This document shows, piece after piece, positions 13,784 to 64,000 of a stretch of 64,000 nt of DNA. The stretch is from Firmicutes bacterium UBA2598 (lineage in GTDB: Bacteria; Bacillota; PH28-bin88), in NCBI GenBank assembly GCA_002339345.1, contig DDKM01000069.1, positions 21,973 to 85,972 of the forward strand, written 5' to 3'. Made by a program: the position numbers and the translations under genes. The notes beneath the pieces were generated by a model. The model saw nothing but the letters and a program-made list of their open reading frames with translations, was not told the DNA's origin and searched no databases. Within the stretch, counting starts at the first letter, position 1; every line of letters begins with the position of its first letter.

Positions 13784-13892
13784 CCTCCAGCGGCAACCCG
13801 GCGATCTTGGCCCTGCCGATGTCCGGCAAAAGCTGTAGACCCGTAGCTTTGCGTCCCTCCCTTTCGGAAGGTTTGCCCAAAGGCGCTTAGGT
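13784..13892 (-). promoter_or_regulatory. c-di-GMP-I (GEMM-I) riboswitch aptamer
   Basis: The minus strand reads AAGCGCCUUUGGGCAAACCUUCCGAAAGGGAGGGACGCAAAGCUACGGGUCUACAGCUUUUGCCGGACAUCGGCAGGGCCAAGAUCGCCGGGUUGCCGCUGG. It contains GGCAAACC, a GAAA-tetraloop hairpin, GACGCAAAGC and a 3' GGGUUnCCG, in the same order as the Vc2-type aptamer as I recall it. Confidence 0.85.
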
Positions 13893-48749: not shown

Positions 48750-49646
48750 TTATAATAGCAAACGCAAAATGACGTAGAGGGTGAGGAAACTTAGAGTTGT
48801 GGTCACCAGAGTGACGCCGGACACCAGCTCCGGTTCGGTATCATACTCGATGGCCAGCAGGGCTGTAAGAATGGCGGTAGGGGTAGCGGCCTGAATAATC
48901 AACACCTTGGCGGTTAGCCCTTCAATCCCAGCCACCTTAACCATGGCAAAGGCCACCAGGGGCATCACCAACAGTTTGACAACGGTGGCAAAGGCCACCT
49001 TGCCGTAATCGCCTCCCAGCTTGGTGGATTGTAACTGCATCCCTAGGGCCACCAGCATCAACGGGATGGCCGCCTGCCCCAACATGTCTACCGGCTTCAT
49101 GATAAAATCCGGCGGAACCACACCCAGCCACCGGAATACTGCAGCCAGCACCACCGCCTGCAGGGCGGGCATTTTTACAACGCTTAATAGGGCTGCCCGC
49201 AAATCTGCCTTGGCCCGGGCCGCCAGGAAAACCCCTAGGGAATACATCAGGATCACGGTATTGACATTGACCAGGATTCCCCGATCAAAACCCCCTTGGC
49301 CAAAGGCAAACAATAGGACTGGCAGGCCGTAGTTACCGTTATTGCAAAAAATCGTACCCAACAAAAGGCCGGACCTTTTGGGCTCGCCTATGTTGGAGAG
49401 CCTGGCGGCAACGGCCACCAGGACATAGACCAGCGCCGTCAACACCACCGAAAAAAGGTTGATCAGCCAGATTTCGCCACCCGAGATTTCGGTATTCAGC
49501 AGGGAAGTAAAGGCCAGCGCAGGGACCAGTACATATAGAGTAACCTGGGAAATGGGACGGGGACTGGTATCCGCCACCTGCCGCAGGAAATAGCCGACAG
49601 CCACCAGCAGCAATACCGGCAGTAATACATCGATAAATACTTGCAA
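48750..49646 (-). CDS. AEC (auxin efflux carrier) family permease
   Basis: 298 aa with a TTG start and about 9-10 TM segments. The N-terminus MQVFIDVLLPVLLLVAVGYFL and the overall pattern are typical of the membrane transport protein / AEC family. Confidence 0.8.
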   Translation of the reverse strand: MQVFIDVLLPVLLLVAVGYFLRQVADTSPRPISQVTLYVLVPALAFTSLLNTEISGGEIWLINLFSVVLTALVYVLVAVAARLSNIGEPKRSGLLLGTIFCNNGNYGLPVLLFAFGQGGFDRGILVNVNTVILMYSLGVFLAARAKADLRAALLSVVKMPALQAVVLAAVFRWLGVVPPDFIMKPVDMLGQAAIPLMLVALGMQLQSTKLGGDYGKVAFATVVKLLVMPLVAFAMVKVAGIEGLTAKVLIIQAATPTAILTALLAIEYDTEPELVSGVTLVTTTLSFLTLYVILRLLL

Positions 49647-49686
49647 TGATAAAACCTCTTTCCGATGAAGTGTTTACTTACTGTCC

Positions 49687-50967
49687 TTATTTGCGCAGCA
49701 GTTCCAGCGGATACAGAGTAATCTTGGGAATCAGGGTAATGAGTAAAAGGCCAATAATCATGGCTATCACCAAGGGTACTGCCCTTTTAACCACGTCTTC
49801 CATTTTAATCCCCGCAATGTTGGAAGCGACATACAGGTTAATCCCCACCGGCGGGGTAACCAAGCCGATACCCAGGTTGGTAATCATCACCACCCCGAAG
49901 TGGACGGGATTGATCCCAACCTGGGTGATGATGGGTACCAGGATAGGGGTAAGGATGATAATGGCAGCAGCAGTTTCCATAAAGGTACCGATGACCAACA
50001 GGAAAACATTTATCATGAGCAGGATCGCCAGTGGATTCTGGGAAAGTCTCAATAGCCACTGGGCCAGTTCCTGGGGAATCTTTTCCCTGGTCAATACCAG
50101 GCCAAACAGGGCCGCACAAGCGATGATAAACATGATCACCGCAGTGGTCATCACACTGACCGACAGCACCTGATAGACATTGGACCAGTTCAATTCGCGG
50201 TAAACTAGACCGCCAACAATAAATCCATACACCACTGCTACCACGGCCGCCTCCGTGGGGGTAAAAACACCACCGTAAATACCTCCCAGGATAATTACCG
50301 GCATCAACAGGGCCAGGAATGCTTCCCGAAAAGCCTGCCATACATCAAGCCAGGAAGCCGGTTGTTCACGTCCGTATCCGGAAGACCGGCTAATGACATA
50401 GGCTACCACCATCAAAGCAAGACCGATGACAATCCCTGGTCCAAAACCGCCCAGGAACAAATCACCGATGGAAGTACCAGCTCCTACCCCGTAAAGAACC
50501 AGAGGAATACTCGGTGGAATGATAATACCGATGGAACCGGAGGTGGCCTGGATGGCGGTGGCGAAATCCTTCCGGTAACCCCTGGCCACCATGGCCGGGA
50601 TGAGAATGCTGCCCAGGGCAGCCGTAGTAGCTGCACCGGAGCCGGAAATGGCAGCAAAGAACATCCCCGCGAGTACCGAAACAATGGCCAGCCCGCCGGT
50701 AAACCGGCCCACCAACACATTGGCGAATTTTACCAGACGATGAGAGATCCCACCACTAGCCATCAGGTTGCCGGCTAAGATAAAAAAGGGTATCGCCATC
50801 AGTGGAAAGGAATCCGTGGCACCGAACATGCGCTGGGGAATGACGATGAGGAAGGAGGCGGCACCCTTGGAATAAAAAGCGGCCGCAGCCGATAGACCAA
50901 GGCTTACAGCTATTGGCGCCCCGATGAATAAAAGAATAATCAGGGATGAGAACAGGATCACAGTCAA
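49687..50967 (-). CDS. dctM: TRAP transporter large permease subunit
   Basis: 426 aa polytopic protein with a DctM-like sequence. The TTG start overlaps the dctQ stop. Confidence 0.92.
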   Translation of the reverse strand: MTVILFSSLIILLFIGAPIAVSLGLSAAAAFYSKGAASFLIVIPQRMFGATDSFPLMAIPFFILAGNLMASGGISHRLVKFANVLVGRFTGGLAIVSVLAGMFFAAISGSGAATTAALGSILIPAMVARGYRKDFATAIQATSGSIGIIIPPSIPLVLYGVGAGTSIGDLFLGGFGPGIVIGLALMVVAYVISRSSGYGREQPASWLDVWQAFREAFLALLMPVIILGGIYGGVFTPTEAAVVAVVYGFIVGGLVYRELNWSNVYQVLSVSVMTTAVIMFIIACAALFGLVLTREKIPQELAQWLLRLSQNPLAILLMINVFLLVIGTFMETAAAIIILTPILVPIITQVGINPVHFGVVMITNLGIGLVTPPVGINLYVASNIAGIKMEDVVKRAVPLVIAMIIGLLLITLIPKITLYPLELLRK

Positions 50968-51443
50968 TTTCCTTCCCCCTTACGGTTCACCAACAGTTCA
51001 TGGGCTTGGACCAGGGTGTTTAACAACAACATTACACCACTCAAGGGTATCACCACATACACATAACCCATGGGGAGTTGCAGAACAGGGGAAAACTGGG
51101 TCATGGAGTGGGTAATTAAACGGGCTCCGTAATAGGTCATCAAACCGTAAAACAGACAACTTGCCGCCATTGCCAGCAGTGCCATGCCTACCCGGACAGG
51201 CCGGGGGAACCATTTTACAAACATCTCCACCACCGCATGGGCCCTTTTTTCCACTGCCAGGGCTGCGCCCAGGAAGGTCAACCACACCATGATATACCTG
51301 GCCACTTCCTCCGACCAAGGCAGGGGGCGCTCCACAACAAAACGGAAGAATACCTGGGTGAAAACAACTACCACCATCACCACCAGCAATGAGTTCAAAA
51401 ATGCGCGGAAAAAGGAGTTCATTTTGGATACAACCCAGGCCAA
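50964..51443 (-). CDS. dctQ: TRAP transporter small permease subunit
   Basis: A 4-TM small protein. I prefer the TTG at 51443 (GGAGGG RBS 7 nt upstream). The ORF is open to 51560, but that part overlaps dctP. Confidence 0.82.
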   Translation of the reverse strand: MAWVVSKMNSFFRAFLNSLLVVMVVVVFTQVFFRFVVERPLPWSEEVARYIMVWLTFLGAALAVEKRAHAVVEMFVKWFPRPVRVGMALLAMAASCLFYGLMTYYGARLITHSMTQFSPVLQLPMGYVYVVIPLSGVMLLLNTLVQAHELLVNRKGEGN

Positions 51444-51519
51444 TGTCTGTCCCTCCTTTCTGATGGACTGGACGGGGGGCGGTGGAACCCGCCCCCCATG
51501 CCTACTCCCTTGTTCTAGA

Positions 51520-52560
51520 TTACCTGGTGTTGATGATCCGGTCAATAAGGTCTTTGCCAATCTGGTCCCCGTATTTGTCGTATACAGCTTTGATGGCTTC
51601 CTGGAAAGGCGTGGTGTCCGGCTCCGTCACCTGTACACCAGCAGCCTTGATTTGCTCAAGATACTGGGCATTGGCCTTGTGCAGGGCTTCCCGCTCATCT
51701 GCTGCGCCCTCCATGGCAAATTGACGGAACAGTTGTTTGATATCTTCCGGGAAGGTTTCCCAGACCGATTTGCTTACCATCAAAACCATAGGAGAATAAT
51801 TGTGATTAGTGAGGGCAAGGTATTTTTGCACCTCAAATAACCTGGAAGTAGCGATAATGGCCAGGGGGTTTTCCTGCCCGTCCACCGTTCCCTGCTGAAG
51901 AGCGGTAAATACCTCGGCGAAGGCCATGGGTGTCGGGTCGGCGCCCAGTGCCCGCCAGGCATCCATGTGGATGGGATTTTCCATGGTCCGCAGTTTGATT
52001 CCCTTGACATCGGCCGGTGAGTTAATCGGACGCTTGGAGTTTGTCATTTGACGGAAACCGTTTTCCCAGAAAGACAGTCCGATGAGGTTATGTTCCGTCA
52101 TCCGGTTCAACAGATCCCGGCCAATCTCTCCATCCAGCACCTTGTAGGCATGATCCCGGTCACGAATGAGGAAGGGAAGATCGAATACCTTCATTCCTGG
52201 TACAAAGTTGGCGGTCACCGCAGTGGTGGCCAGAACCACGTCCACAGTGCCGAGGCGGGCGCCTTCAATTAATTCCCGCTCTCCGCCCAGGGCACTAGCG
52301 GCAAAGACATCCATCTTAACCCTGCCATTGGTGCTTTGTTCCAGTTTTTTCGCCATATCTTTGAGCGCCTCATCCATGGGGTGTCCTGCGGCCGCTACAT
52401 GGCCGGCTTTTAGCTGCCAAGTTTTTTCCGGTACCCCGGCCTGTTCACCACCGCTGGTTTTACCGCCGCCGCAACCAGCCAGCAAACCTGACAACAAAAC
52501 CAAAACCGCCAGTAGTGCTGTCCCCTTAAATGCTTTACCTGATTTGAACACCTTCTTCAC
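51520..52560 (-). CDS. dctP: TRAP transporter substrate-binding lipoprotein (DctP family)
   Basis: 346 aa with a lipobox (LLAGCGG). The DctP-like core includes FWENGFRQMTN. The start is GTG 52560 or GTG 52551. Confidence 0.9.
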   Translation of the reverse strand: MKKVFKSGKAFKGTALLAVLVLLSGLLAGCGGGKTSGGEQAGVPEKTWQLKAGHVAAAGHPMDEALKDMAKKLEQSTNGRVKMDVFAASALGGERELIEGARLGTVDVVLATTAVTANFVPGMKVFDLPFLIRDRDHAYKVLDGEIGRDLLNRMTEHNLIGLSFWENGFRQMTNSKRPINSPADVKGIKLRTMENPIHMDAWRALGADPTPMAFAEVFTALQQGTVDGQENPLAIIATSRLFEVQKYLALTNHNYSPMVLMVSKSVWETFPEDIKQLFRQFAMEGAADEREALHKANAQYLEQIKAAGVQVTEPDTTPFQEAIKAVYDKYGDQIGKDLIDRIINTR

Positions 52561-52709
52561 CTCTCATCAATAATTACCTTGGTTAAGTCCACCCCAATCA
52601 TCTTATGACAAGCTAGCTATACTCCCCTTACCCTCTCCCCCTTCCATACTTCTTTTAACACCCATTCGGGATAGGTAAGTAACCATGTCCTACCGGTTCC
52701 CCCCCTCTG

Positions 52710-53966
52710 TCAAGCCAGAGGCTCGGTGTTTAAACCCAGGGATAAGGCTAGCAGCTCCACGGGATGCACCACCTTGATATCCAACCCATGGCGTCTGATA
52801 CCATATTCCAACTGCATGCGGCAGGCCGGGCATCCCGTGGCCAGCAGATCAGCACCTGTCTCCTTGAGATGTTTAATTTTTCTGTCCAGCACGCCGATGG
52901 AAACCTGGTAGTTAAACAGGTTATAAGTACCGGCACCCCCGCAACAGCGATCCGCTTCTACCATCTCCCGGAAAGTGATGCCGCCAATGGAAGACAACAA
53001 CTGGCGGGGGGCATGTTTTACACCTTGGTACCTGATCAAGTGGCAAGCATCGTGGTAGGTAACCGTAACGGGAGGGATCCCGTCACCGGTGAGGAGATCC
53101 ACCTTTTCCACAAGGAAGACACTGATATCCGCCACCTTGGCGGCAAATTCGGCAGCCTCTTCCGCCTCGTCGGTGCCGGCAAACAACCCGGCGTATTCTC
53201 GCATCGCTGAACCACAAGAGGCACAATCGGTAATAACCGCCTCCACTCCGGCTTCCCGAAAGACCATGATGTTTCGCCAAGCCATTTCACGGGCCATTTG
53301 CCAGTCCCCAGAATGGTGGTGGGCTGCCCCACAGCAAACCACCCCATCGGGTATAATCACCTCCAGGCCCTGTCTTTCCAATACTCTTACTGCCGCCCGG
53401 GCCACCTGGGGGAACACCTGGTTTCCCATGCAACTCAGAAAAAAACCAATCCTTCTCCCATCGCCCAAGGGTATGGCTGCCGTACCTTGTGACCACCCCC
53501 GCCGGAAAGTGTGGGCCGGCAGGGCGGGCATCAGATCCTCCCTTAATTTGAGAGCACCTGGCAATAGCCCATTTACCCGGGCCCGCCGGGCCAACTTTAG
53601 CACACCCATCGCCGCCGCGAACCGGCGGGGATTTCTCAGCAACTGGCGCAATAGTAACCGCTTTACCCGGGCGTGGGGTAAATACCCCGCCAGTTCATGC
53701 CTGGCCGCCACCATGATGCGGTCCGTATTAACCCCCGGCGGGCAATTGGCCACACAAAGACGGCAACCCAGGCAGAGGTCGACATATTTGGCCAGGCGTG
53801 GGGAGGGCGCCAGTTTTCCTTCCAGCATTTCCCGCATCAGACGGATCCGGCCCCGCGCCACCGATCCCTCCTGGCCAATGACCGCAAACACCGGGCATAC
53901 CGCTTGACACGCTCCACACCGCATGCACCGGTATATCTCGTCGGCATATTGTGTTAACCTTTTCAT
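52710..53966 (-). CDS. (Fe-S)-binding oxidoreductase subunit, GlcF-like (2x[4Fe-4S] + two CCG domains)
   Basis: I prefer the ATG at 53966, which overlaps the glcD-like stop (ATGA). Contains CMRCGACQAVCP, CLGCRLCVANCP, and CCG-type motifs (VCCG, CCGGAG). Confidence 0.88.
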   Translation of the reverse strand: MKRLTQYADEIYRCMRCGACQAVCPVFAVIGQEGSVARGRIRLMREMLEGKLAPSPRLAKYVDLCLGCRLCVANCPPGVNTDRIMVAARHELAGYLPHARVKRLLLRQLLRNPRRFAAAMGVLKLARRARVNGLLPGALKLREDLMPALPAHTFRRGWSQGTAAIPLGDGRRIGFFLSCMGNQVFPQVARAAVRVLERQGLEVIIPDGVVCCGAAHHHSGDWQMAREMAWRNIMVFREAGVEAVITDCASCGSAMREYAGLFAGTDEAEEAAEFAAKVADISVFLVEKVDLLTGDGIPPVTVTYHDACHLIRYQGVKHAPRQLLSSIGGITFREMVEADRCCGGAGTYNLFNYQVSIGVLDRKIKHLKETGADLLATGCPACRMQLEYGIRRHGLDIKVVHPVELLALSLGLNTEPLA

Positions 53967-55357
53967 TCCCCATCCTCCCGGAGAAATATCTTGCCCGGAT
54001 TGAGGATACCGTTGGGATCCAGCGCCCTTTTCATATCGCGCATCACATCCACACCCGTCCGGCCCAATTCCCATTCCAGGTATTTTTTCTTTTCCAAACC
54101 GATGCCGTGTTCTCCGCTCAGGGTACCTCCGAGGGCCAGGGCTTCCCGGAACATCTCATCCACTGCCACGTGCACCCGGGCCATCTCCTCGGCGTTTCTT
54201 TCATCGGTGCAGATAATTGGATGCAGGTTACCATCCCCGGTATGTCCCAATATAGGAATCCGTAACTGGTATTTTCGGGCGATCTGTTTGATCTTTTCCA
54301 CCATCACCGGCAGCAGGTTACGAGGAACAGTGATATCTTCCGTCATTACCGTGGGGGTGCTTCGGGCCATGGCCGCAAAAGCTGCCTTCCGGCTGGCCCA
54401 TAGTTGGGCGGCCTCCTCCTCGGTGGCCGCCACACGCACCTCCCTGGCTCCACAACCGGCACATACTTCCGCCACCTTTTTAATTTGTACTGGCACGTCA
54501 ACGGGAGAGCCATCCACCTCGATCAGGATGGCTGATGCTGCATCGGTAGGTAACCCACATGGACGGGATGCCTCGATCAACTGCATCGCTTCCTGATCCA
54601 TCAGTTCCAGGGTTGTGGGGATAATCTTCGCCTTGATGATGGCGGAAACCGCCCTGGCCCCATCGGGTAGGGCATCGAAAATGGCCAACAGGGTCCGTTT
54701 GTCTTCCGGTAATGGTATCAACCTGAGGGTCAGCTCGGTAAAAACACCCAGGGTGCCTTCCGAACCGGTAAACAGCTTGGTCAGGTCATACCCAGTAACG
54801 TTTTTAATGGTCTTCCCGCCGACCCGCATCACCCGTCCGTCTGCCAGCACCACCTGCATTCCCAGTACATAATCTCTGGTAACACCGTACTTGAAGCCCC
54901 TGGGTCCACCGGCATTGGTGGCTACATTGCCGCCAATGGTAGACATATTCAATGCCTGCGGATCAGGTGGAAAAAACAGGCCGTGGGCCTCCACCGAACG
55001 CTGGAATTCACCGGTAACCACCCCGGGTTGGACAACCGCCACCAGGTTTTCAGTATCAATCTCCAGGATTTTGTTCATCCTGTTCATGGCCAGTACAATA
55101 CCGCCTTTTATCGGTACACTGGCCCCGCAAATATTGGTGCCTCCTCCCCTGGGTACCACTGGGATTCCTTTTCCGTTAGCCACTTTCAGTACAGCGGACA
55201 CCTCTTCCGCTGAAGCCGGGAAAACCACAACATCGGGCAAATGGGTGGTGGTTACAGCATCGTAGGAGTAGCAAACCAGGTCTTCCGGGCTGGACAGAAC
55301 ATAGTCCTCTCCCACAATCTTCCGAAGTTCTGTTAAAAAATTGTCGCTTAACATCAA
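53963..55357 (-). CDS. FAD-linked oxidase, GlcD-like (glycolate / D-lactate dehydrogenase subunit)
   Basis: 464 aa with an FAD-binding PCMH domain (VVPRGGGTNICG). The C-terminal GTLSGEHGIG motif is typical of GlcD / D-LDH. Confidence 0.9.
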   Translation of the reverse strand: MMLSDNFLTELRKIVGEDYVLSSPEDLVCYSYDAVTTTHLPDVVVFPASAEEVSAVLKVANGKGIPVVPRGGGTNICGASVPIKGGIVLAMNRMNKILEIDTENLVAVVQPGVVTGEFQRSVEAHGLFFPPDPQALNMSTIGGNVATNAGGPRGFKYGVTRDYVLGMQVVLADGRVMRVGGKTIKNVTGYDLTKLFTGSEGTLGVFTELTLRLIPLPEDKRTLLAIFDALPDGARAVSAIIKAKIIPTTLELMDQEAMQLIEASRPCGLPTDAASAILIEVDGSPVDVPVQIKKVAEVCAGCGAREVRVAATEEEAAQLWASRKAAFAAMARSTPTVMTEDITVPRNLLPVMVEKIKQIARKYQLRIPILGHTGDGNLHPIICTDERNAEEMARVHVAVDEMFREALALGGTLSGEHGIGLEKKKYLEWELGRTGVDVMRDMKRALDPNGILNPGKIFLREDGE

Positions 55358-55397
55358 CGCACTTCCTCCTGAAGGTCCACTTTCCTATCTGGTCTTT

Positions 55398-55408
55398 TGG
55401 TTGGACCA
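55398..55408. promoter_or_regulatory. Candidate FadR-subfamily GntR operator (TGGT-N3-ACCA)
   Basis: A perfect palindrome TGGTTGGACCA lies in the divergent intergenic region, about 41-44 bp upstream of the glcD-like start. Confidence 0.45.
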
Positions 55409-55571
55409 GAATACTGCAAGGACAATTTTCAGACATTAATTTCGGCAGCCGTAAGACCAAATCCTGCTGAGATTTAACGAAAAAAATAAAATATATGGAA
55501 TTGTGATAATAGTTATACAGAAGGAAAATTTCCCTTGAGGGGTAATAAATTGTTTAGGGGTTTCCGGGCAG

Positions 55572-56327
55572 GTGAAAACCGCCCGGAGTAGCGAAAGGGG
55601 GCACGGGTTTTTGAAACTGCAACCGGTCAAGACGCAAAAGGTATACCAGGTGGTACTACTGCAACTCCGCCAGTTATTACAGGAGGGTCATTTGAAACCG
55701 GGAGAAAAACTGATACCCGAGCGGGAACTGGCGGAACAATTGCAAGTAAGTAGGACCTCACTGCGGGAAGCCTTACGGGCACTGGAAATTCAAGGCTTGA
55801 TTGAAACCAGACCGCGTGGCGGCACCTTTATCCGGCACACCGATGCCCAAACTCTGCTGGCGGCCCTGAACCAGCTTTTAGACGGCAATTCCCTGACCTC
55901 AATTCTAGAAATGCTGCAGGTCCGGCAAATCTTGGAGTCGGAATGCGCAGCAATTGCTGCCCAGAGGCGCACCATGCACGACCTCATCCAGATGGAAAAG
56001 AGCCTGCAGGACATGATGCGCTATGAAACGGAGGAAGATCTTGGCCTGGAGGCTGATCTTCAATTCCATTTTTATGTGGTTCGTTCCACAGGGAACTCCA
56101 CCCTGACTGGTATCATGCACATGCTTAGCAATAATATGAAGGAAACAATCCGGGCCACCAGGCACACCCGTTTTTCCCAGCCTGGCCGGTTCATGGAGAC
56201 CTTCCAGGAACACGAAAACATTTTCCTGGCCATCCGGGATAGGGAACCCGACCGCGCCCGCCGCGCAACTGCCGACCACATCACCAAAATCCAAGAGGAA
56301 ATGTTAAAGGAAAGGGGGTTTTGGTAG
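55572..56327 (+). CDS. GntR-family transcriptional regulator, FadR subfamily (FCD domain; LldR/PdhR-like)
   Basis: Contains a wHTH (LIPERELAEQLQVSRTSLREALRALE) and a C-terminal FCD-like helical domain. The start is uncertain: GTG 55572 or a downstream TTG. Confidence 0.88.
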   Translation: MKTARSSERGHGFLKLQPVKTQKVYQVVLLQLRQLLQEGHLKPGEKLIPERELAEQLQVSRTSLREALRALEIQGLIETRPRGGTFIRHTDAQTLLAALNQLLDGNSLTSILEMLQVRQILESECAAIAAQRRTMHDLIQMEKSLQDMMRYETEEDLGLEADLQFHFYVVRSTGNSTLTGIMHMLSNNMKETIRATRHTRFSQPGRFMETFQEHENIFLAIRDREPDRARRATADHITKIQEEMLKERGFW

Positions 56328-56383
56328 TAACTCTGATGAAAAGAAAAGAAGAACCACAAGGGTCCTCCTCAGATAATCGTAAT

Positions 56384-57514
56384 TTAAACGGCAGGGTTGG
56401 TACCGGGTTCTCCCAGGATATCCTGGAGTTCCACCATTTCATCCGCCTCGTGGCGCACCCATGGACGGAGCAAGCTGGCCAGGATTCTCTTTCCCCGGGC
56501 TAGGCGCTGTGGGCACAAACAGTTCAGAAACAAGCGGTCCCCGATCATCACCAGCGTGCCTCCGATGGCATAGTCCTTGCTGCTGGATTGCCAGCCGTGC
56601 TGTTTACCCCTGCCAAAAACCCAATCATAAACAACGGCTGCCAGTCCGGCGCTCTGCTCCACCGGACGCCTGGCCTTGACGAATATGTCCGCATGGTCTA
56701 AGATCCTTTGGGCTTCCTGCAGCTCAGATATCCGGAACCTGGCCCGGCAGGGGTTGACCGGATCTCCCTCGGAGGTTACCAACACCTGGGGCACGGAACA
56801 ATTTATTACCTCCCTAATCCAATTCTCCCGGCGGTGGGAATATCCTTTCATAAAGGAATTCCAGCCAGCCGTACAATCTGCAAAACCAGCCGCAGCCCGT
56901 TCCCGGTGAAGGATTTTCAATAATTCCGGCTTAAAATGGGCAGGTAGGCAAACACCGCCAGGTGAAAGCCAATGGTACTGTTCCAAGGGCAACAGCCTGG
57001 CTAGCAACAGCAACCCCGTCTGCAGTATAAGTTCCTTGGAACGGCGCACCACCCTGGACATCCCGGACAGGAGATCTGTCATGGTTATTGCCTCTCCGGC
57101 CACCGCTGACACCTGGTAAAGGGAAAGGCTTGTTTCCGGCCACAAGTGAATGAGCTGTCGTTGCCAGTAATCCAGCTCACTGAGGTTTTCCTGTTGAAAG
57201 ATGGCGGCCAGACAACGTCCGCCATCAGGCATAAAATCAAAGAGAAACCAGTCCAAAAAGGACTCCAGGTCTTCCAACCCAAGGCCGTCACCCGCCCCAG
57301 TTCCTTGCCAGAAGACCATCATAGCCCTTTTCATCTGGTGCTCCCACCTGGGGGAAATGACGAAGTCCGCCATCCGTCCCATCAGGGATCTGGCCGCCAC
57401 TTCCCAGCGGCGGGAAACCAGGTCATAAACCATGGCTCCCCAATTCCCGCAACAGGCGGGATACTCCCTACCGCTGCCACAACCGCAAAACTGACTGCCT
57501 TCCAACCCTTCCAT
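56384..57514 (-). CDS. Hypothetical protein with an N-terminal SEC-C-type metal-binding motif
   Basis: 376 aa with an AGGGGTGGA RBS. The N-terminus contains CGCGSGREYPACCG (SEC-C-like CxC...CC). I do not recognise the rest. Confidence 0.7.
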   Translation of the reverse strand: MEGLEGSQFCGCGSGREYPACCGNWGAMVYDLVSRRWEVAARSLMGRMADFVISPRWEHQMKRAMMVFWQGTGAGDGLGLEDLESFLDWFLFDFMPDGGRCLAAIFQQENLSELDYWQRQLIHLWPETSLSLYQVSAVAGEAITMTDLLSGMSRVVRRSKELILQTGLLLLARLLPLEQYHWLSPGGVCLPAHFKPELLKILHRERAAAGFADCTAGWNSFMKGYSHRRENWIREVINCSVPQVLVTSEGDPVNPCRARFRISELQEAQRILDHADIFVKARRPVEQSAGLAAVVYDWVFGRGKQHGWQSSSKDYAIGGTLVMIGDRLFLNCLCPQRLARGKRILASLLRPWVRHEADEMVELQDILGEPGTNPAV

Positions 57515-57691: not shown

Positions 57692-59380
57692 TCAATGGTC
57701 GATGGTTTCCGGCCACATTTCTAAACCGCCTTCTAAAAAGGCCACTCTGGTGAAACCCGCTCCCAGCAAGGTGCGGGCGGCTTCATAGCCCCTTAGCCCC
57801 AGTTCACACAGAGTGATGATCTCCTTATCTTGCGGTATTTCCATAAGCCTTGCCCGCAGTTGGTTGGAGGGAATAGCCAGTACCCGCTGGTCCTCGATGC
57901 GGCGTCCAGCTATTTCGCCGGGTTGGCGCAAATCCAGCAATACCAGATCCTCGCCCCGGTCCAGTTTGGCTTTGGCCTCTGCCGGTGTTACCCCTTGCAC
58001 CAGGCCATCCAGTTTATTCCGGAGGGTATTGGTGGCGTGAAGGGCGATGTCCATGGCCGAGGCGAAGGGCGGGGCGTAGGCCAAGTCCAGGTTGGCCAAC
58101 TGGTCGAGGGTACAGCCCATGGCCAGAGCAGTGGCCAACACATCCAGGCGCTTGATGGCATCACCGGCGCCCAGCACCTGAGCGCCCAGCAGGCGGCGGG
58201 AACATGCTTCGGCAATAACCTTGACGATAACCCGGGAACGCATGGGAAAGTAATGGGAAGTATCGGTGGCCGGCACAACAGCGGTAACCACCTGGTAGCC
58301 CAGCGCCTCTGCTTCGACGGTGGACAGGCCGGTCCGGCCAATATTCAGATCAAAGGCCTGCAGAGCGGTAGTGCCCAGCACCCCGGGAAAGCGGCTATCC
58401 CTGCCAGCGATATTGTCCCCCATCACCCGACCGTGTTTGTTGGCGGTTGAAGCCAGGGGCAGGTAAACCTGGTGTCCGGTAACCAGATGCAGGTTTTCCA
58501 CACAGTCGCCACCGGCAAAGATAGCCGGATCACTGGTGCGCAGGCAGGCATCAACGGCGATGGCGCCGGTTGTACCAAGGGCCAGGCCAGCTTCCCTGGC
58601 CAGATGGACATTGGGCCGCACCCCGGCAGCGATAATCACCATGTCGGTGTCAATGGTATCGATGGTGGTCAATACCCGCCGCACCATCCCGCCAGCGTCC
58701 CCTTCCAGTCCCAACACCTGCTGCCCTGTACGTACATCCACCCCCCTTTGTCCCATCTGCCGCTGCAGCAGGTTGGCCAAATCCGGGTCCAAAAGCCTGG
58801 GCAGCACCTGAGGCTGCAGTTCCAGAAGGGTAACCTTCAACCTTTGCCCGGCCAAGGCGTCTGCTACCTCCAGCCCGATTAACCCCGCGCCAATAACGGC
58901 CACCCGTTTGATCTCCTTGGTGCGGATAGCCTGGATCACCCTCGCCACGTCGTGGGGGTGGTGAAAGGAAAAGACCCGCTGTAAATCGGTTCCGGGAATA
59001 GACAGTTCTATAGGCACGGAGCCCGTAGCCAGCACCAGGCGGTCGTATGGCCACACCTGCCGTTTACCTGTTCCCAAATGGGTGGCAATAACCTCCTGGC
59101 GGTTCCGGTCAATACCTTCGGCCAGAACCCCGGTAATCACTGCCACATTTTTTTCCTGGCGGAAAAAGTCTATATCCCGTACCAGGCCGGCAGCAGTGGT
59201 GGTCAATTCTTTCATGGGTACCAAACCGGCCAGATGATAGGGCAGCCCGCAACTGCCATAGGAGATCATGTCTCCCTTTTCCAGGATGGTTATTTCCGCA
59301 TGGGGATCCAGGCGCCGTACCCGGGCAGCGGTTTTTGGGCCGGTGGCCACCCCTCCGATAATTAAAACCCTGGTCTTCAT
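57692..59380 (-). CDS. CoA-disulfide reductase / NADH oxidase family flavoprotein with C-terminal rhodanese domain
   Basis: 562 aa. Contains VLIIGGVATG (FAD), the redox Cys in SYGSCGLPY, a second dinucleotide fold (VAVIGAGLIGLE), and a C-terminal rhodanese with an active-site-like loop (ITLCELGLRG). The ATG overlaps the upstream stop (ATGA). Confidence 0.88.
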   Translation of the reverse strand: MKTRVLIIGGVATGPKTAARVRRLDPHAEITILEKGDMISYGSCGLPYHLAGLVPMKELTTTAAGLVRDIDFFRQEKNVAVITGVLAEGIDRNRQEVIATHLGTGKRQVWPYDRLVLATGSVPIELSIPGTDLQRVFSFHHPHDVARVIQAIRTKEIKRVAVIGAGLIGLEVADALAGQRLKVTLLELQPQVLPRLLDPDLANLLQRQMGQRGVDVRTGQQVLGLEGDAGGMVRRVLTTIDTIDTDMVIIAAGVRPNVHLAREAGLALGTTGAIAVDACLRTSDPAIFAGGDCVENLHLVTGHQVYLPLASTANKHGRVMGDNIAGRDSRFPGVLGTTALQAFDLNIGRTGLSTVEAEALGYQVVTAVVPATDTSHYFPMRSRVIVKVIAEACSRRLLGAQVLGAGDAIKRLDVLATALAMGCTLDQLANLDLAYAPPFASAMDIALHATNTLRNKLDGLVQGVTPAEAKAKLDRGEDLVLLDLRQPGEIAGRRIEDQRVLAIPSNQLRARLMEIPQDKEIITLCELGLRGYEAARTLLGAGFTRVAFLEGGLEMWPETIDH

Positions 59381-60975
59381 GCCAAAAACTCCAAAAAAGG
59401 TTTTTCAATATCCACCAGGGCATTCACCACCAGTTCGACCAACCCGCCGTAATGAATATTAAATTTCTCGGTCGTGTGGTAGAATTCTAAGATGTCCCTG
59501 ATAGCCCCTTTACAGTTGGAACAAGGGGCACAGATGTACTTAGGAGTGCCGGGATCCATGGAACCCTGGAAGGCCTGCAGGATTTGCCTAAACTTCATGC
59601 GGGAACCGACCTGTTTTCTAAACTCGGGGAAATTCATGGATTGCATGATGGCAAACCCGCTCCCGCCACCACAGCAGTAGTTGTTCACTCCATGGGGAGT
59701 CATTTCCCGAAACTGGGGACAGATGGCCTGCAAGATTTGCCTCTGGGGCTTAACCACTCCCATCATCCTGACCACGTTACAAGGGTCATGGAGGGTCACG
59801 GGGAAATTGTTTTTTTGGGGATCTAATTTCAACACCTTCCGGTTTACCATTTCCCACAGAAGAGGCAGGAAGCTTTCCACCGGGATTTTGTCCTCACCCA
59901 CCGTAATCCTGTCCATACTAACCGCGCTTGCCTTGTGGGCATGACCGCATTCACCAATGATAATTCGCCGCACTCCCAACTGTTTCGCCACCTTAAACTG
60001 CTCCTGGGCCACCCTCCTGGCCTGGACGTCATCATACCAAAGACCGTAGTTAACGTTGTCATAGCCAATCATATCACTGCTTAGCGTCCAATCCAAACCT
60101 GCCTCGGTAAAGAGAACAGCAAAGGCGGCGGGATTATCCGGCCAGGTCATGAACTCGCCGGCGTTGTGGGTTAAAAGAATGTCAGCTCCCTTTTTATCCA
60201 CTGGAATTTTAATCTTTTTGCCAGTTTTGGCAAAAATGTCATCTTCCATAAATTCCAGCATATCCAAAAAGGCGGGCTTGGTGAGGCCGGTGGATGAACC
60301 TGTCTTTAACTGGAGCATGGTACCTTTTTCATGTAGTGGTTTGGGAGCAATGCCCATTTCCTGGCTGAAGATCTTTCTGATTTCACGGGCCAGTAAGCCG
60401 TTATCCAGCCCTAATGGGCAGGCTTGGGCACAGCGTCGGCACAGGTTACACCGGTAGGCCAGTTCTCCCAACCTGGCGATTGTCTCCCAATTTATGTCAA
60501 TATCCGCTCCCACCAAGCTGCCCAGCATTTTCCCGCTCTTGGTCAAATGCTTTTTGACGATTTTGCGTAAGACCTCAGACCGGAAAATGGGCCTGTAAAT
60601 CTCCTGACCCCCGCTGGCTTTAAAAATATGGCAGGCCTCGGAACAAGTATTGCACTTGGCACAATATTTAATGGAAAGAACCAGGGGTTGCAAGAAATTC
60701 CGGTTAACATCATCGGAAAAGATTTTTGCCAGGCCACTCAAAAAGCTGTTTACCACTTGCTCCTCTTCTGCCTTTGTCTGCGGCCTGATGAGGGTGTCAA
60801 TCCCCACATACCCATCCAAAGTGGTACAGTGTTTCTCCTTCCAGGCATCTTTGGGAACTGTTAAGGGTGGTTCCATGCCAGGTTGATCATATGGGGCTGG
60901 CAGATCCATCAATTTGCCCAATTGAACCAGCTGTTCCGTCCGTTTGCCCATGTCTTGGGGTTTCAGATTTTTCAT
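59377..60975 (-). CDS. HdrD/DsrK/HmcF-like cytoplasmic Fe-S protein (2x[4Fe-4S] + CCG domain)
   Basis: 532 aa. Contains CAKCNTCSEACH and CNLCRRCAQACP, followed by HDPCNVV...NNYCCGGGSG...CAPCSNC (CCG-type cysteines). Confidence 0.85.
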   Translation of the reverse strand: MKNLKPQDMGKRTEQLVQLGKLMDLPAPYDQPGMEPPLTVPKDAWKEKHCTTLDGYVGIDTLIRPQTKAEEEQVVNSFLSGLAKIFSDDVNRNFLQPLVLSIKYCAKCNTCSEACHIFKASGGQEIYRPIFRSEVLRKIVKKHLTKSGKMLGSLVGADIDINWETIARLGELAYRCNLCRRCAQACPLGLDNGLLAREIRKIFSQEMGIAPKPLHEKGTMLQLKTGSSTGLTKPAFLDMLEFMEDDIFAKTGKKIKIPVDKKGADILLTHNAGEFMTWPDNPAAFAVLFTEAGLDWTLSSDMIGYDNVNYGLWYDDVQARRVAQEQFKVAKQLGVRRIIIGECGHAHKASAVSMDRITVGEDKIPVESFLPLLWEMVNRKVLKLDPQKNNFPVTLHDPCNVVRMMGVVKPQRQILQAICPQFREMTPHGVNNYCCGGGSGFAIMQSMNFPEFRKQVGSRMKFRQILQAFQGSMDPGTPKYICAPCSNCKGAIRDILEFYHTTEKFNIHYGGLVELVVNALVDIEKPFLEFLA

Positions 60976-60998
60976 TGTTCTATCCTCCCTCGGATAGT

Positions 60999-61856
60999 CT
61001 AATTCCCTTTGTTGTTAATGTGGGGAGCCGACCATGAGGTTTTGGGCTGGTAGCTCAAGGCCTTGCGGACACTTGCTTCTATCTTGGCGCCCCGAAGATT
61101 CGGCTCGTTCTCCCACAAAACCTTATGGAAGGTGAAATATTTGCCCACATAATGACTCATCTTGGTAAAAGGAATATAAACGAGAAGGGCTCCCAGCAAA
61201 ATGATGTGTACCGTCAAAACGCCGCCGTGGGTAAAGGGAGTAAAAGTAAACAACCCCTTCATGATCATCCGGCCGTAGTTGAACCCGGGGTCGCCAACCC
61301 AAACCATCATTCCGGTGATCACAACTGCAAAGATAAATAACAGGTTAAAATATTCCTGGGGTGTTGTGTATTTTCTTAACGTGGTATCGGTAAACCTGCG
61401 CAAAATAAGGGCTATTGAGCCCAAGGCGGTAAGCAAGGCCCCGACGGAACCCGATATTAAAGTGGCATAATAGATGAAGGAAGGAAGACCCGATGGCTCT
61501 GTCAGGGCTCCCACCCCCAACAAGATGGTCCACACACCGAGAAAATAGATGCCCAAATGCATGGTATAGGACAGCCACCAGAAAGGCCTCTGGTTTACAA
61601 ACAAGTTCTTGATAAACAGCATCTCTTTGAGCATTTCTTTCAGCTCGCCCACATGGGAGACTTCCCTAGGCTTTGCCCACCATTGGTAGTCCTCAAAATA
61701 GGATCCGCCATATTTGGCCCGTTCCCCTGTTTCCTTGGGCACAGGGTACAGTTCCCACCTGCTGTGCATAGGCATTTTGGCATATTTTAGGGCCTTCCAG
61801 AGGGACACAAAGACAAAAATAAACAAGGAGAAATAGATATAAACAAGCAGGATCAA
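60999..61856 (-). CDS. NarI-like (nitrate reductase gamma / DsrM / HmcE-like) membrane cytochrome b
   Basis: 285 aa with a TTG start and AAGGAGG RBS. It has 5-6 TM helices with conserved His residues. It sits between the NrfD-like and HdrD-like genes. Confidence 0.75.
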   Translation of the reverse strand: MILLVYIYFSLFIFVFVSLWKALKYAKMPMHSRWELYPVPKETGERAKYGGSYFEDYQWWAKPREVSHVGELKEMLKEMLFIKNLFVNQRPFWWLSYTMHLGIYFLGVWTILLGVGALTEPSGLPSFIYYATLISGSVGALLTALGSIALILRRFTDTTLRKYTTPQEYFNLLFIFAVVITGMMVWVGDPGFNYGRMIMKGLFTFTPFTHGGVLTVHIILLGALLVYIPFTKMSHYVGKYFTFHKVLWENEPNLRGAKIEASVRKALSYQPKTSWSAPHINNKGN

Positions 61857-61873
61857 TTTATCCAGCCTCCTTC

Positions 61874-63031
61874 TTACCTGGCTGTTTCCTCTTTAACGCT
61901 TACGGCTATCTTGTAAAGGACAGTAAGAATCAGCCCCCCAATGGCCCAAATACCAAGGGTGATTAACACCTCCGGCAGGGTAGGCACATATTCCACCACC
62001 TTTTTAAAGGCATTGGGAACAAACCCGGCGATCACCAAACCCAGGCCCTTTTCAATCCACAGGGAGACAAACACCGCCACACACGCTATGGTCAGCGTTC
62101 TTTCATTGGTACGGGTTTTCGGGTTAAGCAAAAGCACCAGGGCTATTATTGCCAGTAGTGTAAAAGTCCACATGAAGGGAACCAGGTTGCCTTGTCCGTA
62201 CAGGCCAACAAATAGGTACTGCAAACTGTACATGTGCCCCGGTACCTGGCTGTAAAAGGCTGTGAACAGTTCCAGCCCCACGAAGAACACGCTGACAGCC
62301 ATGGCATAGGTAACGATGGACGCCAGTTTACCAATGGCCTCTTCCCCGGCGTCAAACTTGCTGATCCGCTTCATCACCAAGCAAAGGATTATCAATAAAG
62401 CCGGGCCGGCGGCAAAGGCGGAAGCCAGGAAGCGGGCGGCCAGGATGGCGGTCATCCACAAGTGCTTACCGGGAAGGCCGGCATACAGGAAGGCGGTAAC
62501 GGTGTGGATGCTCACCGCCCAGGGGATGGAGACGTAAATCAGGGTCTTGACCCACTTGGGCGGTACAACGCCTTTACGCTCCGCTTCCAGCACGTTCCAC
62601 CCGATCAGGATATTCAATAAGAGATAGCCGTTTAATACGACCATATCCCAGAACAGGATAGAGTTAGGGGTCGGATACAGAAGCACGTTAAACAGCCTAG
62701 TTGGTTTTCCCAGGTCAACGATAATGAAAAGCAAACACATGGTAACAGCGGCAACCGCCAAAAACTCGCCGAAGATGGTAATCCTGCCGAAGGACTTGAC
62801 ATTGTGCAGGTAATAGGGTAGAACCACCATCACGGCGGAGGCCGCCACCCCCACCAGAAAGGTAAACTGGGCGATGTAAAGGCCCCAGGAGACGTCCCTA
62901 CTCATACCGGTGACGGTCAATCCCTGCTGCAGTTGGGCCAGGTAGTACATAAACCCGATTCCAAACAGGGCGACAAGCAGCGCGACCCACTGCCCATATC
63001 CTTTACTGCCCCTCAAAGCCTTTGCCAGCAT
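61874..63031 (-). CDS. NrfD/PsrC-family integral membrane protein (DsrP/HmcC-like)
   Basis: 385 aa with about 10 TM segments. The N-terminal region [17 protein letters not shown] is typical of the NrfD family. Confidence 0.85.
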
Positions 63032-63043
63032 AACTACCCCTCC

Positions 63044-63820
63044 TCACGACACGATGTAATAGATTTTGGGTTTTGTGCCTAGATCGGGTTTGCGCTGTAT
63101 GGTGTAACGGGCACGCAGCACCTTTCTTACCGCGGACTCGGGGTCATCCAGATCGCCGAAAACTAAGGCATTGTGTTTACATGCTTCCACACAGGCTGGG
63201 ACCAACCCGGCAGCCAGCCTCTCTTCACACAGGTTGCACTTTTCCACCACCCCTTTTTCCCGGGTGGGGAAAGCGCCATTCACTTCCTTGATGAAAGGCC
63301 TGGGGTCCCTGAAGTTAAAGCTTCTGGCGCCAAATGGGCAGGCAGCCATGCAGTAGCGGCAGCCGATACACCGGTGATAGTCCATCATGATTATACCGTC
63401 CGACCGCTTGTAGGTGGCCTTGGTGGGGCATACCCGCACACAGGACGGATTGGCGCAATGGTTGCAGAATACCAGCACCGGCTTGCCCTTGACACTTTCC
63501 GCAAGATAGGCGTGTTTTTGTTCGGGAAAGGTGTTTTCAAAGGGTTCGGTCCACACCCACTTGATCTCTTCCTTGACAGAGCCGATGTCAGGTACGTTGT
63601 GGGTCTGGTGACAGGCCAGAATACAGTCGGTACAGTCGGGTTCCCCTTCTTCCCAGCACTTCTGCATATCCACTACCATGGCCCACTGTTTACCGGGCAG
63701 GGCTTCCGGGTTGGCAGCATACTTGGTCTGGTTGCTGCCGGCGAACACCCGGGCTACCGGGAGGGCTCCCAAACCCAAGGCACAGAACCCGCCGATCTTG
63801 ATAAAACTCCTCCTCTGCAT
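63044..63820 (-). CDS. Tat-exported 4x[4Fe-4S] ferredoxin-like protein (DsrO/HmcB/NrfC-like)
   Basis: 258 aa with a twin-arginine signal (MQRRSFIKIGGFCALGLGALPVARVFA). It has multiple CxxCxxCxxxC(P) clusters (CNHCANPSCVRVCP, CIGCRYCMAACP, CNLCEERL...). Confidence 0.88.
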   Translation of the reverse strand: MQRRSFIKIGGFCALGLGALPVARVFAGSNQTKYAANPEALPGKQWAMVVDMQKCWEEGEPDCTDCILACHQTHNVPDIGSVKEEIKWVWTEPFENTFPEQKHAYLAESVKGKPVLVFCNHCANPSCVRVCPTKATYKRSDGIIMMDYHRCIGCRYCMAACPFGARSFNFRDPRPFIKEVNGAFPTREKGVVEKCNLCEERLAAGLVPACVEACKHNALVFGDLDDPESAVRKVLRARYTIQRKPDLGTKPKIYYIVS

Positions 63821-63824
63821 GTTA

Positions 63825-64000
63825 TCACCTACCCTCCTTCGGTTGGATGTGGCACGTCCAGCAGTCGGGTTTTACCCCCACGTAACTGTGGCAGCTGTTG
63901 CAGAACTGGACCTGGCTTAGCTGGTTGCTGGTTGTCTTGACCTGTTTCGGCGGTATGTTGGCATGGCAATCCAAACAGGTATTCTGCAGGCTCATTTCAT
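63825..64000 (-). CDS. Multihaem c-type cytochrome, C-terminal fragment (rest lies beyond the window)
   Basis: Not in the ORF track because it is short and truncated. The reverse-complement frame reads ...LQNTCLDCHANIPPKQVKTTSNQLSQVQFCNSCHSYVGVKPDCWTCHIQPKEGR*. That gives three CxxCH haem-binding motifs in 58 aa. The stop is at 63825-63827, 5 nt before the next ATG. Confidence 0.8.
   Translation of the reverse strand, partial: EMSLQNTCLDCHANIPPKQVKTTSNQLSQVQFCNSCHSYVGVKPDCWTCHIQPKEGR

Follow-up and report, generated by a model that had tools for sequence, protein, structure and literature searches.

The window analyzed here, by which we mean the whole 64,000-nt stretch of contig DDKM01000069.1 from Firmicutes bacterium UBA2598 in which positions are counted below, ends on its right-hand side in six consecutive minus-strand genes that belong to a dsr cluster. 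In the direction of transcription these are the 3' end of dsrJ, dsrO, dsrP, a NarI-like gene that we call dsrM2, an HdrD/DsrK-like gene that we call dsrK2, and a gene for a flavoprotein-rhodanese fusion of the NADH-dependent persulfide reductase (Npsr) type (Table 1). An earlier note on this DNA, made from its letters without database searches, had described six such genes with these motifs, and all six are found as open reading frames (ORFs) at the positions that it gave; because these ORFs are long and their domain matches strong, the six genes are not a product of chance. The note was also right that they are packed tightly as one unit. The intergenic gaps from dsrJ to npsr measure 4, 12, 17, and 23 nt and are followed by a 4-nt overlap, in which the TGA of dsrK2 and the ATG of npsr share the letters ATGA at 59377–59380, as read from the sequence. 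The cytochrome and iron-sulfur (FeS) genes are as close to each other as had been claimed, although 4 rather than 5 nt separate them. Families were called from Pfam domains and from NCBIfam equivalog models with curated cut-offs, and the domain searches that the note had proposed found every domain in question (NrfD, Nitrate_red_gam, Fer4_8 with CCG, Fer4_11, and Pyr_redox_2 with Pyr_redox_dim and Rhodanese).

Table 1. Features at the right-hand end of the window, followed by other features, in window coordinates (aa, amino acids).
Feature	Position	Strand	Description
dsrJ 3' end, three-heme cytochrome c	63825..64000	minus	last 57 codons and stop codon in the window; CLDCH, CNSCH, CWTCH
dsrO, Tat-exported ferredoxin-like FeS subunit	63044..63820	minus	258 aa; N-terminus MQRRSFIK (RRSFIK); Pfam Fer4_11
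dsrP, NrfD-type integral membrane subunit	61874..63031	minus	385 aa; Pfam NrfD
dsrM2, NarI-like cytochrome b	60999..61856	minus	285 aa; TTG start; Pfam Nitrate_red_gam
dsrK2, HdrD/DsrK-like CCG iron-sulfur protein	59377..60975	minus	532 aa; Pfam Fer4_8 and CCG
npsr-like gene, CoADR-family flavoprotein-rhodanese fusion	57692..59380	minus	562 aa; ISYGSCGLPY; overlaps the dsrK2 stop codon by ATGA
DUF7986/SEC-C-motif-like gene	56384..57514	minus	376 aa; weak DUF7986 match; 177 nt 3' of npsr
Longest-stemmed terminator-like hairpin of the L024 scan	56346..56370 (L024 13011–13035)	minus	10-bp stem and T-rich tail; consensus match only
c-di-GMP-I riboswitch	13789..13887	minus	Rfam RF01051, 66.7 bits (gathering score 35); at the 5' end of ORF 12171–13880
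Gene cluster	48750..56327		divergent GntR/FCD regulator beside a GlcD-like FAD oxidase, a GlcF-like CCG protein, TRAP transporter DctP/Q/M, and a Mem_trans permease

The window edge falls inside dsrJ, and the genes upstream of it are found on a second copy of the same sequence. An exact-sequence look-up with the flavoprotein returned JGI contig Ga0326299_1000022 (locus L024; compared loci carry labels of this kind), which we used to extend the window, whereas exact-sequence look-ups with DsrO and DsrP of the window returned no matching record. Positions 5381–21689 of L024 and positions 64000–47692 of the window are 100% identical with zero gaps, and a window coordinate is 69381 minus the L024 coordinate. 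The NCBI contig DYZS01000071.1 (assembly GCA_022735845.1) carries a sequence identical to L024, and here locus L116 extends further upstream. On L024, the genes 5' of the cytochrome are a ferredoxin gene (fdx), dsrA, dsrB, a 74-aa dsrD-like gene, dsrC, an RsbRD_N gene of the type that is named DsrT in the literature on such clusters, dsrM with a 333-aa NarI-like product, and dsrK with a 538-aa iron-sulfur product. These genes lie outside the window, and the NCBIfam scores are 531 bits for DsrM (cut-off 300), 749 for DsrK (400), 564 for dsrA (393), 508 for dsrB (342), and 128 for DsrC (53.5); the C-terminus of this DsrC is ...CKIAGLPKPTGCV. On the identical contig, then, canonical DsrM and DsrK are encoded with J, O, and P and are clustered with dsrAB, dsrC, and dsrD, and the gene order as a whole is dsrA2B2-dsrN-HTH-dsrC' / fdx-dsrA-dsrB-dsrD-dsrC / dsrT-dsrM-dsrK-dsrJ-dsrO-dsrP / dsrM2-dsrK2-npsr (HTH, helix-turn-helix regulator). 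We favor the reading, with a probability of roughly 70%, that the region is the downstream half of an ~18-kb dsr cluster in which JOP are canonical subunits, the two genes that follow form a second DsrMK pair, and Npsr serves the pathway as an accessory enzyme.

The cytochrome, FeS, and NrfD genes of the window are DsrJ, DsrO, and DsrP of a canonical DsrMKJOP complex whose M and K lie beyond the window edge. Full-length DsrJ on L024 is 144 aa long, carries CxxCH at residues 95, 120, and 133 and nowhere else, and scores 162.4 bits on the NCBIfam DsrJ model NF038038 (cut-off 100). DsrO scores 307.4 bits on NF045797 (cut-off 200) and DsrP 489.6 bits on NF045798 (cut-off 350). The earlier note had read the gene order as that of hmc rather than dsrMKJOP, which is overturned by the dsrM-dsrK pair directly 5' of the cytochrome: dsrMKJOP comes first and a second dsrMK after it. 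The likeness to hmcA-B-C-E-F is produced by the window edge, which cuts dsrJ, and it illustrates that a gene order taken from a truncated operon can mislead. Assignment to Hmc was also rejected on scores, which are 90.3 bits for DsrO on HmcB (cut-off 420), 27.5 for the NarI-like protein on HmcE (275), and 202.7 for the CCG protein on HmcF (750), as well as on the cytochrome itself, which with 144 aa and three hemes, and preceded by dsrK, is not of the large HmcA type. Tmc and HdrD assignments were dropped on their HMM scores, the CCG protein reaching 211 bits on TmcB against a cut-off of 735.

Relatives of DsrP that are annotated as DsrP, at 70–81% identity, are found in Calderihabitans, Moorella, Neomoorella, Thermoanaerobacteraceae, many Bacillota metagenome-assembled genomes (MAGs), and Syntrophobacteraceae; a PDB sequence search with DsrP returned only distant NrfD subunits of ACIII/Psr, at ~1e-6. 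That Gram-positive sulfate reducers have DsrMK only is an older view (PMC3569383, PMC6378623), and the remark in the earlier note that a complete module would be unusual in Firmicutes is outdated. Such modules are known in Moorella thermoacetica, with dsrAB-dsrD-dsrMKJOP-dsrT (PMC10504309), and in Calderihabitans maritimus, with a full DsrMKJOP set (PMC7306483), and DsrP proteins at this level of identity are common in Bacillota. Both the full DsrMKJOP of Bacillota and second DsrMK copies are already published and are not new.

Judged from their sequences, the NarI-like and CCG genes that follow dsrP are a second, divergent DsrMK pair (hereafter M2K2), the relatives of which mostly stand alone in Bacillota and Archaeoglobi. 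K2 scores 380.7 bits on DsrK (cut-off 400), 211 on TmcB, and 203 on HmcF, its orthologue in C. maritimus reaches 409.5 bits on DsrK and so passes the cut-off, and K2 is 27% identical to the upstream DsrK. It has two CxxCxxCxxxC motifs and the complete CCG cysteine set, such that all cluster-binding cysteines are kept, and C105/108/111/115, C176/179/182/186, C399, C434-C435, and C482/485/488 are conserved across 32 K2-type sequences. A PDB sequence search with DsrK2 found no solved relative. M2 scores 38.8 bits on the NCBIfam DsrM model (cut-off 300), compared with 531 for the upstream dsrM, and is 45–73% identical to the partners of K2-type genes in Bacillota and Archaeoglobi. Of the four histidines that are heme ligands in NarI-type proteins M2 keeps three. 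The second histidine of helix 2 is Thr110 in M2 and a residue other than histidine in 32/32 M2-type sequences (the M2 of the window and its relatives in L001–L022, L112, and L114), whereas the equivalent position is H141 in the upstream DsrM and is a histidine in all canonical DsrM proteins. The M2 family has conserved histidines of its own (H31, H244, and H279), and heme ligation in M2-type proteins may differ from that in canonical DsrM and NarI.

A scan of species-representative genomes gave full-length relatives of K2, at 58–83% identity, in 22 of the 23 loci fetched. Their hosts are Bacillota (68–83% identity) and Archaeoglobi, Thermoprotei, and Ca. Methanodesulfokora (58–62%). The M2 partner lies directly 5' of K2 in all fetched K2 loci except one short contig. 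Some of the hosts, Ca. Dichloromethanomonas for example, may be without dsrAB. Matches to DsrO or DsrP in the same locus as M2K2 were three only (L009, L010, and L021), none of them directly 5' of M2 as in the window. A DsrMK-only clade from archaea, Deltaproteobacteria, and Clostridia is known, as are genomes that hold both DsrMK and DsrMKJOP (PMC10504309), and a second dsrMK copy has been reported in Desulfotomaculum (Desulfotomaculum ruminis; PMC3569383). Based on its relatives, K2 probably belongs to the published "basal" DsrMK-only clade (Neukirchen et al. 2023). The G+C content of M2 and K2 is 0.48–0.49, compared with 0.53–0.59 in the neighboring genes, and recent horizontal insertion of the pair was considered on this account; third-position G+C is nearly equal, which makes the evidence weak. 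In the closest species representative, dsrP is directly followed by npsr and M2K2 is found elsewhere (L001), and in the lineage of the window the pair therefore seems to have moved into or out of the space between dsrP and npsr.

Some of the loci with M2K2 relatives have features of their own. An uncultured archaeon has four tandem M2K2-type pairs in series (L019, 2769–14551). The same observation extends to L020 and L021, with several pairs on two contigs of an Archaeoglobaceae MAG. A contig labelled "Actinomycetes bacterium" (L009, WRGR01000033.1) has the order dsrD-T-M-K-J-O-P-dsrC-dsrN-M2-K2 with a K2 that is 68% identical to that of the window; here mislabelling or lateral transfer is possible.

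The last of the six genes encodes, as far as its sequence tells, a full-length Npsr-type enzyme with both catalytic cysteines, and we predict that it is an NADH-dependent persulfide or polysulfide reductase. The earlier note had placed the protein in the CoADR/Nox family, with a redox-active cysteine and a rhodanese domain, and this placement is supported by the Pfam matches (Pyr_redox_2, Pyr_redox, Pyr_redox_dim, and Rhodanese, the last at residues 465–556) and by the alignment of residues 4–556 to Npsr of Archaeoglobus fulgidus (PDB 6PFZ, E 1.3e-137). The protein also matches Npsr of Shewanella loihica (3NTA), CoADR-RHD of Bacillus anthracis (3ICR), and CoAPR of Enterococcus faecalis (8A56). 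Cys44 in SYGSCGLPY does not vary among 27 relatives, nor do Cys525 and Arg530, which lie in the loop CELGLR; Cys44, Cys293, and Cys525 are conserved across 89 Npsr proteins. The cut-offs for true coenzyme A (CoA) disulfide reductases are not reached (382 bits on TIGR03385, cut-off 578.8; 363 on NF007123, cut-off 458), and characterized Npsr enzymes are described as inactive with CoA disulfide (PMC7969121). In the chemistry worked out for Npsr, the rhodanese cysteine takes up sulfane sulfur, bound CoA acts as a "swinging arm" that passes it to the cysteine next to the FAD, and NADH reduces it to H2S (PMC7969121, PMC9405070). The study of the A. fulgidus enzyme called its role in a sulfate reducer a puzzle (PMC7969121); in the Archaeoglobi loci that we fetched, no Npsr was found near the DsrMK pairs.

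Several lines of evidence indicate that this branch of the Npsr family is tied to dsr genes. In a neighbor-joining (NJ) tree of 89 Npsr proteins, the clade that holds the window enzyme comprises 11 loci and has the support of 96 of 100 bootstraps, and all 11 adjoin dsr genes, M2K2, or both, compared with 0/5 loci in the sister clade and 3/73 of the remaining loci. The clade has its own specific residues (D174, A310, and Q341). Among 80 metagenome loci with Npsr at 37–52% identity, dsr or M2K2 genes lie near Npsr in five only. The arrangement varies between relatives. In the closest species representative (MAG053, L113) T-M-K-J-O-P leads directly to npsr and M2K2 is on a separate contig (L001), and two metagenome loci (L026 and L027) have dsrB-D-C-T-M-K-J-O-P-npsr. 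A Clostridia MAG (L028) has T-K-J-O-P-M-npsr-dsrC-dsrC-dsrA-dsrB-dsrN, and C. maritimus (L112) has K-J-O-P-M-A-B-D-fdx-C-npsr-N-M2-K2, an order that a metagenome locus (L114) shares as far as its contig reaches. M2-K2-npsr-dsrA-dsrB is found in a Syntrophomonadaceae MAG (L010) and in a metagenome (L036), and (M2)-K2-npsr on two short contigs (L006 and L033). Finally, PH28_bin88 (L025), with an Npsr at 61% identity, has an MK-like pair and npsr, followed ~3 kb downstream by dsrABDC-T-M; this pair is more divergent (41% to K2) and holds the same position before npsr. The association of Npsr is therefore real, but what Npsr is associated with is the entire dsr cluster and not just K2. A gene for an NADH-dependent persulfide reductase recurs within dsr operons of one Gram-positive group. 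Conservation of the flavoprotein gene beside the complex in relatives, on which the earlier note had made its reading depend, is supported, 11/11 loci of the clade having dsr genes, M2K2, or both next to it. The combination was also said to be uncharacterized as a unit, and we found no paper that characterizes it; a literature search that paired DsrMK or dsrAB with persulfide reductase, rhodanese, or pyridine nucleotide-disulfide oxidoreductase likewise found no paper that discusses the association.

Spacing and translation signals are consistent with one transcription unit. Gaps across the dsr cluster are ≤36 nt, except for 112 nt 5' of dsrT. GGAGG-type ribosome-binding sites precede dsrB, dsrD, dsrC, dsrM, and dsrK and then dsrO through dsrK2; dsrT and dsrJ have no clear site, and npsr has only a weak one, which fits re-initiation at the ATGA overlap. 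This arrangement suggests that in this genome translational coupling keeps the synthesis of Npsr in line with that of DsrK2. The L024 scan placed no terminator-like site between neighboring genes anywhere from dsrA to the DUF7986 gene. The rightward extension that the note had proposed gave the heme count, three in 144 aa, but not the promoter: in the extended locus, scans for promoter and terminator consensus sequences returned 14 and 21 matches, compared with 10.1 ± 3.8 and 18.4 ± 3.7 in shuffled sequence, and no promoter is assignable. The 177-nt gap 3' of npsr folds no better than shuffles (z 0.05) and contains no terminator-like site. The DUF7986-like protein encoded beyond it has an N-terminal CGCGSGREYPACCG motif, SEC-C-like by our reading, and its gene does not adjoin Npsr in any other locus examined. 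A terminator-like hairpin lies just 3' of this gene (Table 1), which is possibly the last of the transcription unit, although its membership is uncertain.

Expression data are available for a relative. In C. maritimus KKC1, the published cluster of which is our locus L112, RNA-seq found strongly reduced expression of dsr-cluster genes with CO, compared with N2 plus pyruvate and thiosulfate (PMC7306483, Table 2). The log2 fold changes are -5.0 to -7.2 for DsrT, K, J, O, P, M, A, B, D, ferredoxin, and DsrC, -5.1 for RS04170 ("pyridine nucleotide-disulphide oxidoreductase"), -5.3 for DsrN, -6.2 and -6.1 for the second DsrM and the second DsrK, and -2.8 for DsrE (PMC7306483). In this relative the orthologous genes for Npsr and the second DsrMK pair are co-regulated with the dsr cluster.

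In the established pathway, reduction of sulfite by DsrAB leaves the sulfur on DsrC in the form of a trisulfide. In the model of Santos et al. 2015, DsrK, anchored by DsrM(JOP), reportedly reduces this trisulfide with electrons derived from menaquinol. On the reading that we favor, DsrM2K2 would be a second quinol-linked reductase, either for the DsrC trisulfide or for a related disulfide or persulfide. The dsr-linked Npsr would be an accessory enzyme of the pathway, in which NADH reduces zero-valent (sulfane) sulfur that arises in the pathway or enters it. As candidate substrates we consider persulfides, either of low molecular weight or on proteins, and polysulfide, with the sulfane atom of thiosulfate as a further possibility.

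Several observations weigh against this reading. K2 lies slightly under the DsrK cut-off and M2 far under that of DsrM, so that their substrate could differ from the DsrC trisulfide. The Npsr clade comes from a distance-based tree whose proteins were sampled by similarity to the query, and the Npsr relatives of Desulfovirgula and Thermanaeromonas, both ~51% identical, have no dsr neighbors. Coupling is not universal, as the gap between K2 and npsr is 6–180 nt in relatives (-4 in the window). A hairpin followed by a T-run lies between the two genes in L033 (~970–1123) and L036 (~8813–9000), and npsr is therefore probably transcribed separately there, in L036 together with the dsrAB downstream. 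Because the scan totals are no higher than those of shuffled sequence, the scans count as weak evidence and the operon boundaries are drawn from gene spacing only. Finally, the role of Npsr is proposed from genomic context and from the biochemistry of homologues that are ~40–50% identical.

A more specific proposal, which we put forward tentatively and hold to be possible yet doubtful, is that the dsr-associated Npsr clade provides a cytoplasmic step that is otherwise missing when these Bacillota respire thiosulfate or sulfite. It has two versions. C. maritimus respires thiosulfate yet has no phs genes, and its thiosulfate route was therefore unknown to the authors who described it (PMC7306483). 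In the thiosulfate version, the rhodanese cysteine would strip sulfane sulfur from thiosulfate or from the persulfides of DsrC or other carriers, the flavin domain would reduce the stripped sulfur to H2S with NADH, and the freed sulfite would pass to DsrAB. The redox potential is about -400 mV for thiosulfate/HS- + HSO3- and -320 mV for NAD+/NADH. Reduction of thiosulfate by NADH would thus be mildly uphill and should be feasible if DsrAB keeps sulfite low. If this version is true, Npsr would be an NADH-dependent thiosulfate or sulfane reductase in organisms without PhsABC. In the shared-electron version, the DsrC trisulfide, which takes up four electrons, would be reduced by Npsr and DsrK2 together, NADH and quinol each contributing two.

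An alternative that we consider unlikely is that the Npsr-like enzyme is general housekeeping against sulfane-sulfur or CoA-persulfide stress, found near dsr because sulfide producers need it and with no dedicated step in the Dsr pathway. The family is indeed very large (>5,900 relatives at E <= 1e-50), most of its members have no dsr neighbors, CoAPR of E. faecalis clears CoA persulfide in sulfide stress (PMC9405070), and the A. fulgidus enzyme has been proposed to protect from S0 (PMC7969121). This view does not, however, account well for a clade whose 11 loci all place the gene in or beside dsr or M2K2 genes, for the translational coupling to dsrK2 in this genome, or for the npsr of C. maritimus, which is flanked by dsrC and dsrN and shares their regulation. 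In any case, it differs from the reading that we favor mainly in degree.

We give slightly less weight still to the possibility that Npsr is a direct partner of DsrC and DsrK2 and reduces the trisulfide or persulfide of DsrC with NADH; it would then provide a soluble electron input, comparable in role to DsrL, in parallel or in series with quinol-driven DsrK. The ATGA coupling to dsrK2 would fit such a partnership, as would the M2-K2-npsr triads in the window, L006, L010, L033, L036, and L042, the divergent MK-like pair before npsr in L025, and the position of npsr beside dsrC in L028, L112, and L114. However, the known substrates of Npsr are small persulfides and polysulfide, and L026, L113, and L028 have no M2K2 beside npsr, from which it follows that K2 is not an obligate partner. 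Far less probable than either is a single Hmc-like complex in which the six genes pass electrons from an extracytoplasmic multiheme cytochrome to a thiol or persulfide carrier in the cytoplasm on which the flavoprotein acts: the order within the window alone looks like hmcA-B-C-E-F and no gap between the six genes exceeds 23 nt, but the contig extension contradicts it, since the 144-aa, three-heme cytochrome fits the DsrJ model and a canonical dsrM-dsrK pair lies immediately 5', while the HmcB, HmcE, and HmcF models fail, the M2K2 pairs of relatives mostly stand alone with no J, O, or P adjoining, and the closest species representative has dsrP directly before npsr with M2K2 on another contig.

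Further upstream on the extended contig (L116, 1506–6337) there is a divergent second dsrA/dsrB-like pair of 369 and 333 aa, which scores 167 and 206 bits, under the dsrA and dsrB cut-offs. Between this pair and fdx-dsrAB, and directly 5' of the latter, lie dsrN, an HTH regulator, and an 84-aa DsrC-like protein, in this order. The pair resembles the early-branching second dsrAB copy of Moorella, which lies near dsrC and dsrN (PMC10504309), and L028 holds a comparable set. Genes for thiosulfate uptake or sulfur relay (YeeE, TusA, and DsrE) were sought in the window and its upstream extension, with proteins of relatives as queries, and none was found. The nearest DsrB proteins are those of C. 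maritimus (75% identity) and Thermanaeromonas (74%), and AddA and AddB of the window score best on the Gram-positive AddAB models, yet under their cut-offs; by these sequences, the host, whose genome comes from a metagenome, looks like a Moorella/Calderihabitans-like member of the Bacillota.

Two other features of the window are listed in Table 1. The ORF that begins within the c-di-GMP-I riboswitch probably has its true start downstream of the aptamer. The cluster just downstream of the dsr locus looks like one for uptake and oxidation of a hydroxy acid of the lactate or glycolate type.

Much of the global sulfur cycle is driven by the Dsr pathway, in which some hand-offs of electrons and sulfur are unsettled. 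An Npsr clade that is fixed inside dsr clusters, with one member coupled to a DsrK paralogue and another co-regulated in a culturable strain, offers a concrete and cheap hypothesis. It bears on the role of Npsr and on the cytoplasmic handling of sulfane sulfur and thiosulfate in Gram-positive sulfite reducers, which can be tested in that strain. The rest of the finding is ordinary, namely a canonical dsr operon cut by the window edge.

Compared with known systems, the locus shares its subunit types with the Hmc complex of Desulfovibrio (a cytochrome c, a Tat-exported FeS protein, an NrfD-like, a NarI-like, and an HdrD-like protein). HmcA, however, is a 16-heme cytochrome, whereas the cytochrome here has three hemes in 144 aa. 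From the DsrMKJOP of sulfate and sulfite reducers, such as that of Desulfovibrio, the Hme complex of A. fulgidus, and that of M. thermoacetica, we see no essential difference. Like the stand-alone DsrMK of Gram-positive reducers and archaea, M2K2 is a NarI-like and CCG pair, almost all members of which lack adjoining dsrJOP, but the pair in the window is appended to dsrP in one operon and coupled to npsr. DsrL, which we take to be an iron-sulfur flavoprotein of a different family without the CoADR-type plus rhodanese build, is set apart by this description and is a parallel in possible role only. It is a pyridine-nucleotide-dependent flavoprotein of some dsr clusters (PMC10591310), and Npsr could likewise link NAD(H) to the pathway here. 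The window enzyme has the same two-domain build, end to end, as the enzymes of 6PFZ, 3NTA, 3ICR, and 8A56, with the FAD-proximal and rhodanese cysteines conserved, but none of those characterized enzymes is reported inside a dsr operon.

The J, O, and P genes of the window and the M and K genes upstream are arranged as in the dsrABDC-dsrT-dsrMKJOP clusters of bacterial reducers (PMC10504309), except that dsrN lies not between dsrD and dsrC but upstream, beside the second divergent dsrAB. What remains new is a dsr operon with a second DsrMK pair and a clade-specific Npsr, and even here the components already stand, uninterpreted, in the gene table of one paper. The cluster of C. maritimus KKC1 (KKC1_RS04115–04195; Inoue et al. 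2020, PMC7306483) has the same components as the one described here, namely DsrT, K, J, O, P, M, A, B, D, ferredoxin, DsrC, an oxidoreductase of COG0446 and COG0607, and a second DsrM and DsrK, and the paper lists the flavoprotein gene without interpreting it. Identities between KKC1 and the window are 79% for K2, 62% for M2, 76% for DsrP, 75% for DsrB, and 51% for Npsr. In KKC1, npsr comes after dsrC, and dsrN stands between it and M2K2, whereas in the window M2K2 lies between dsrP and npsr, and K2 overlaps npsr.

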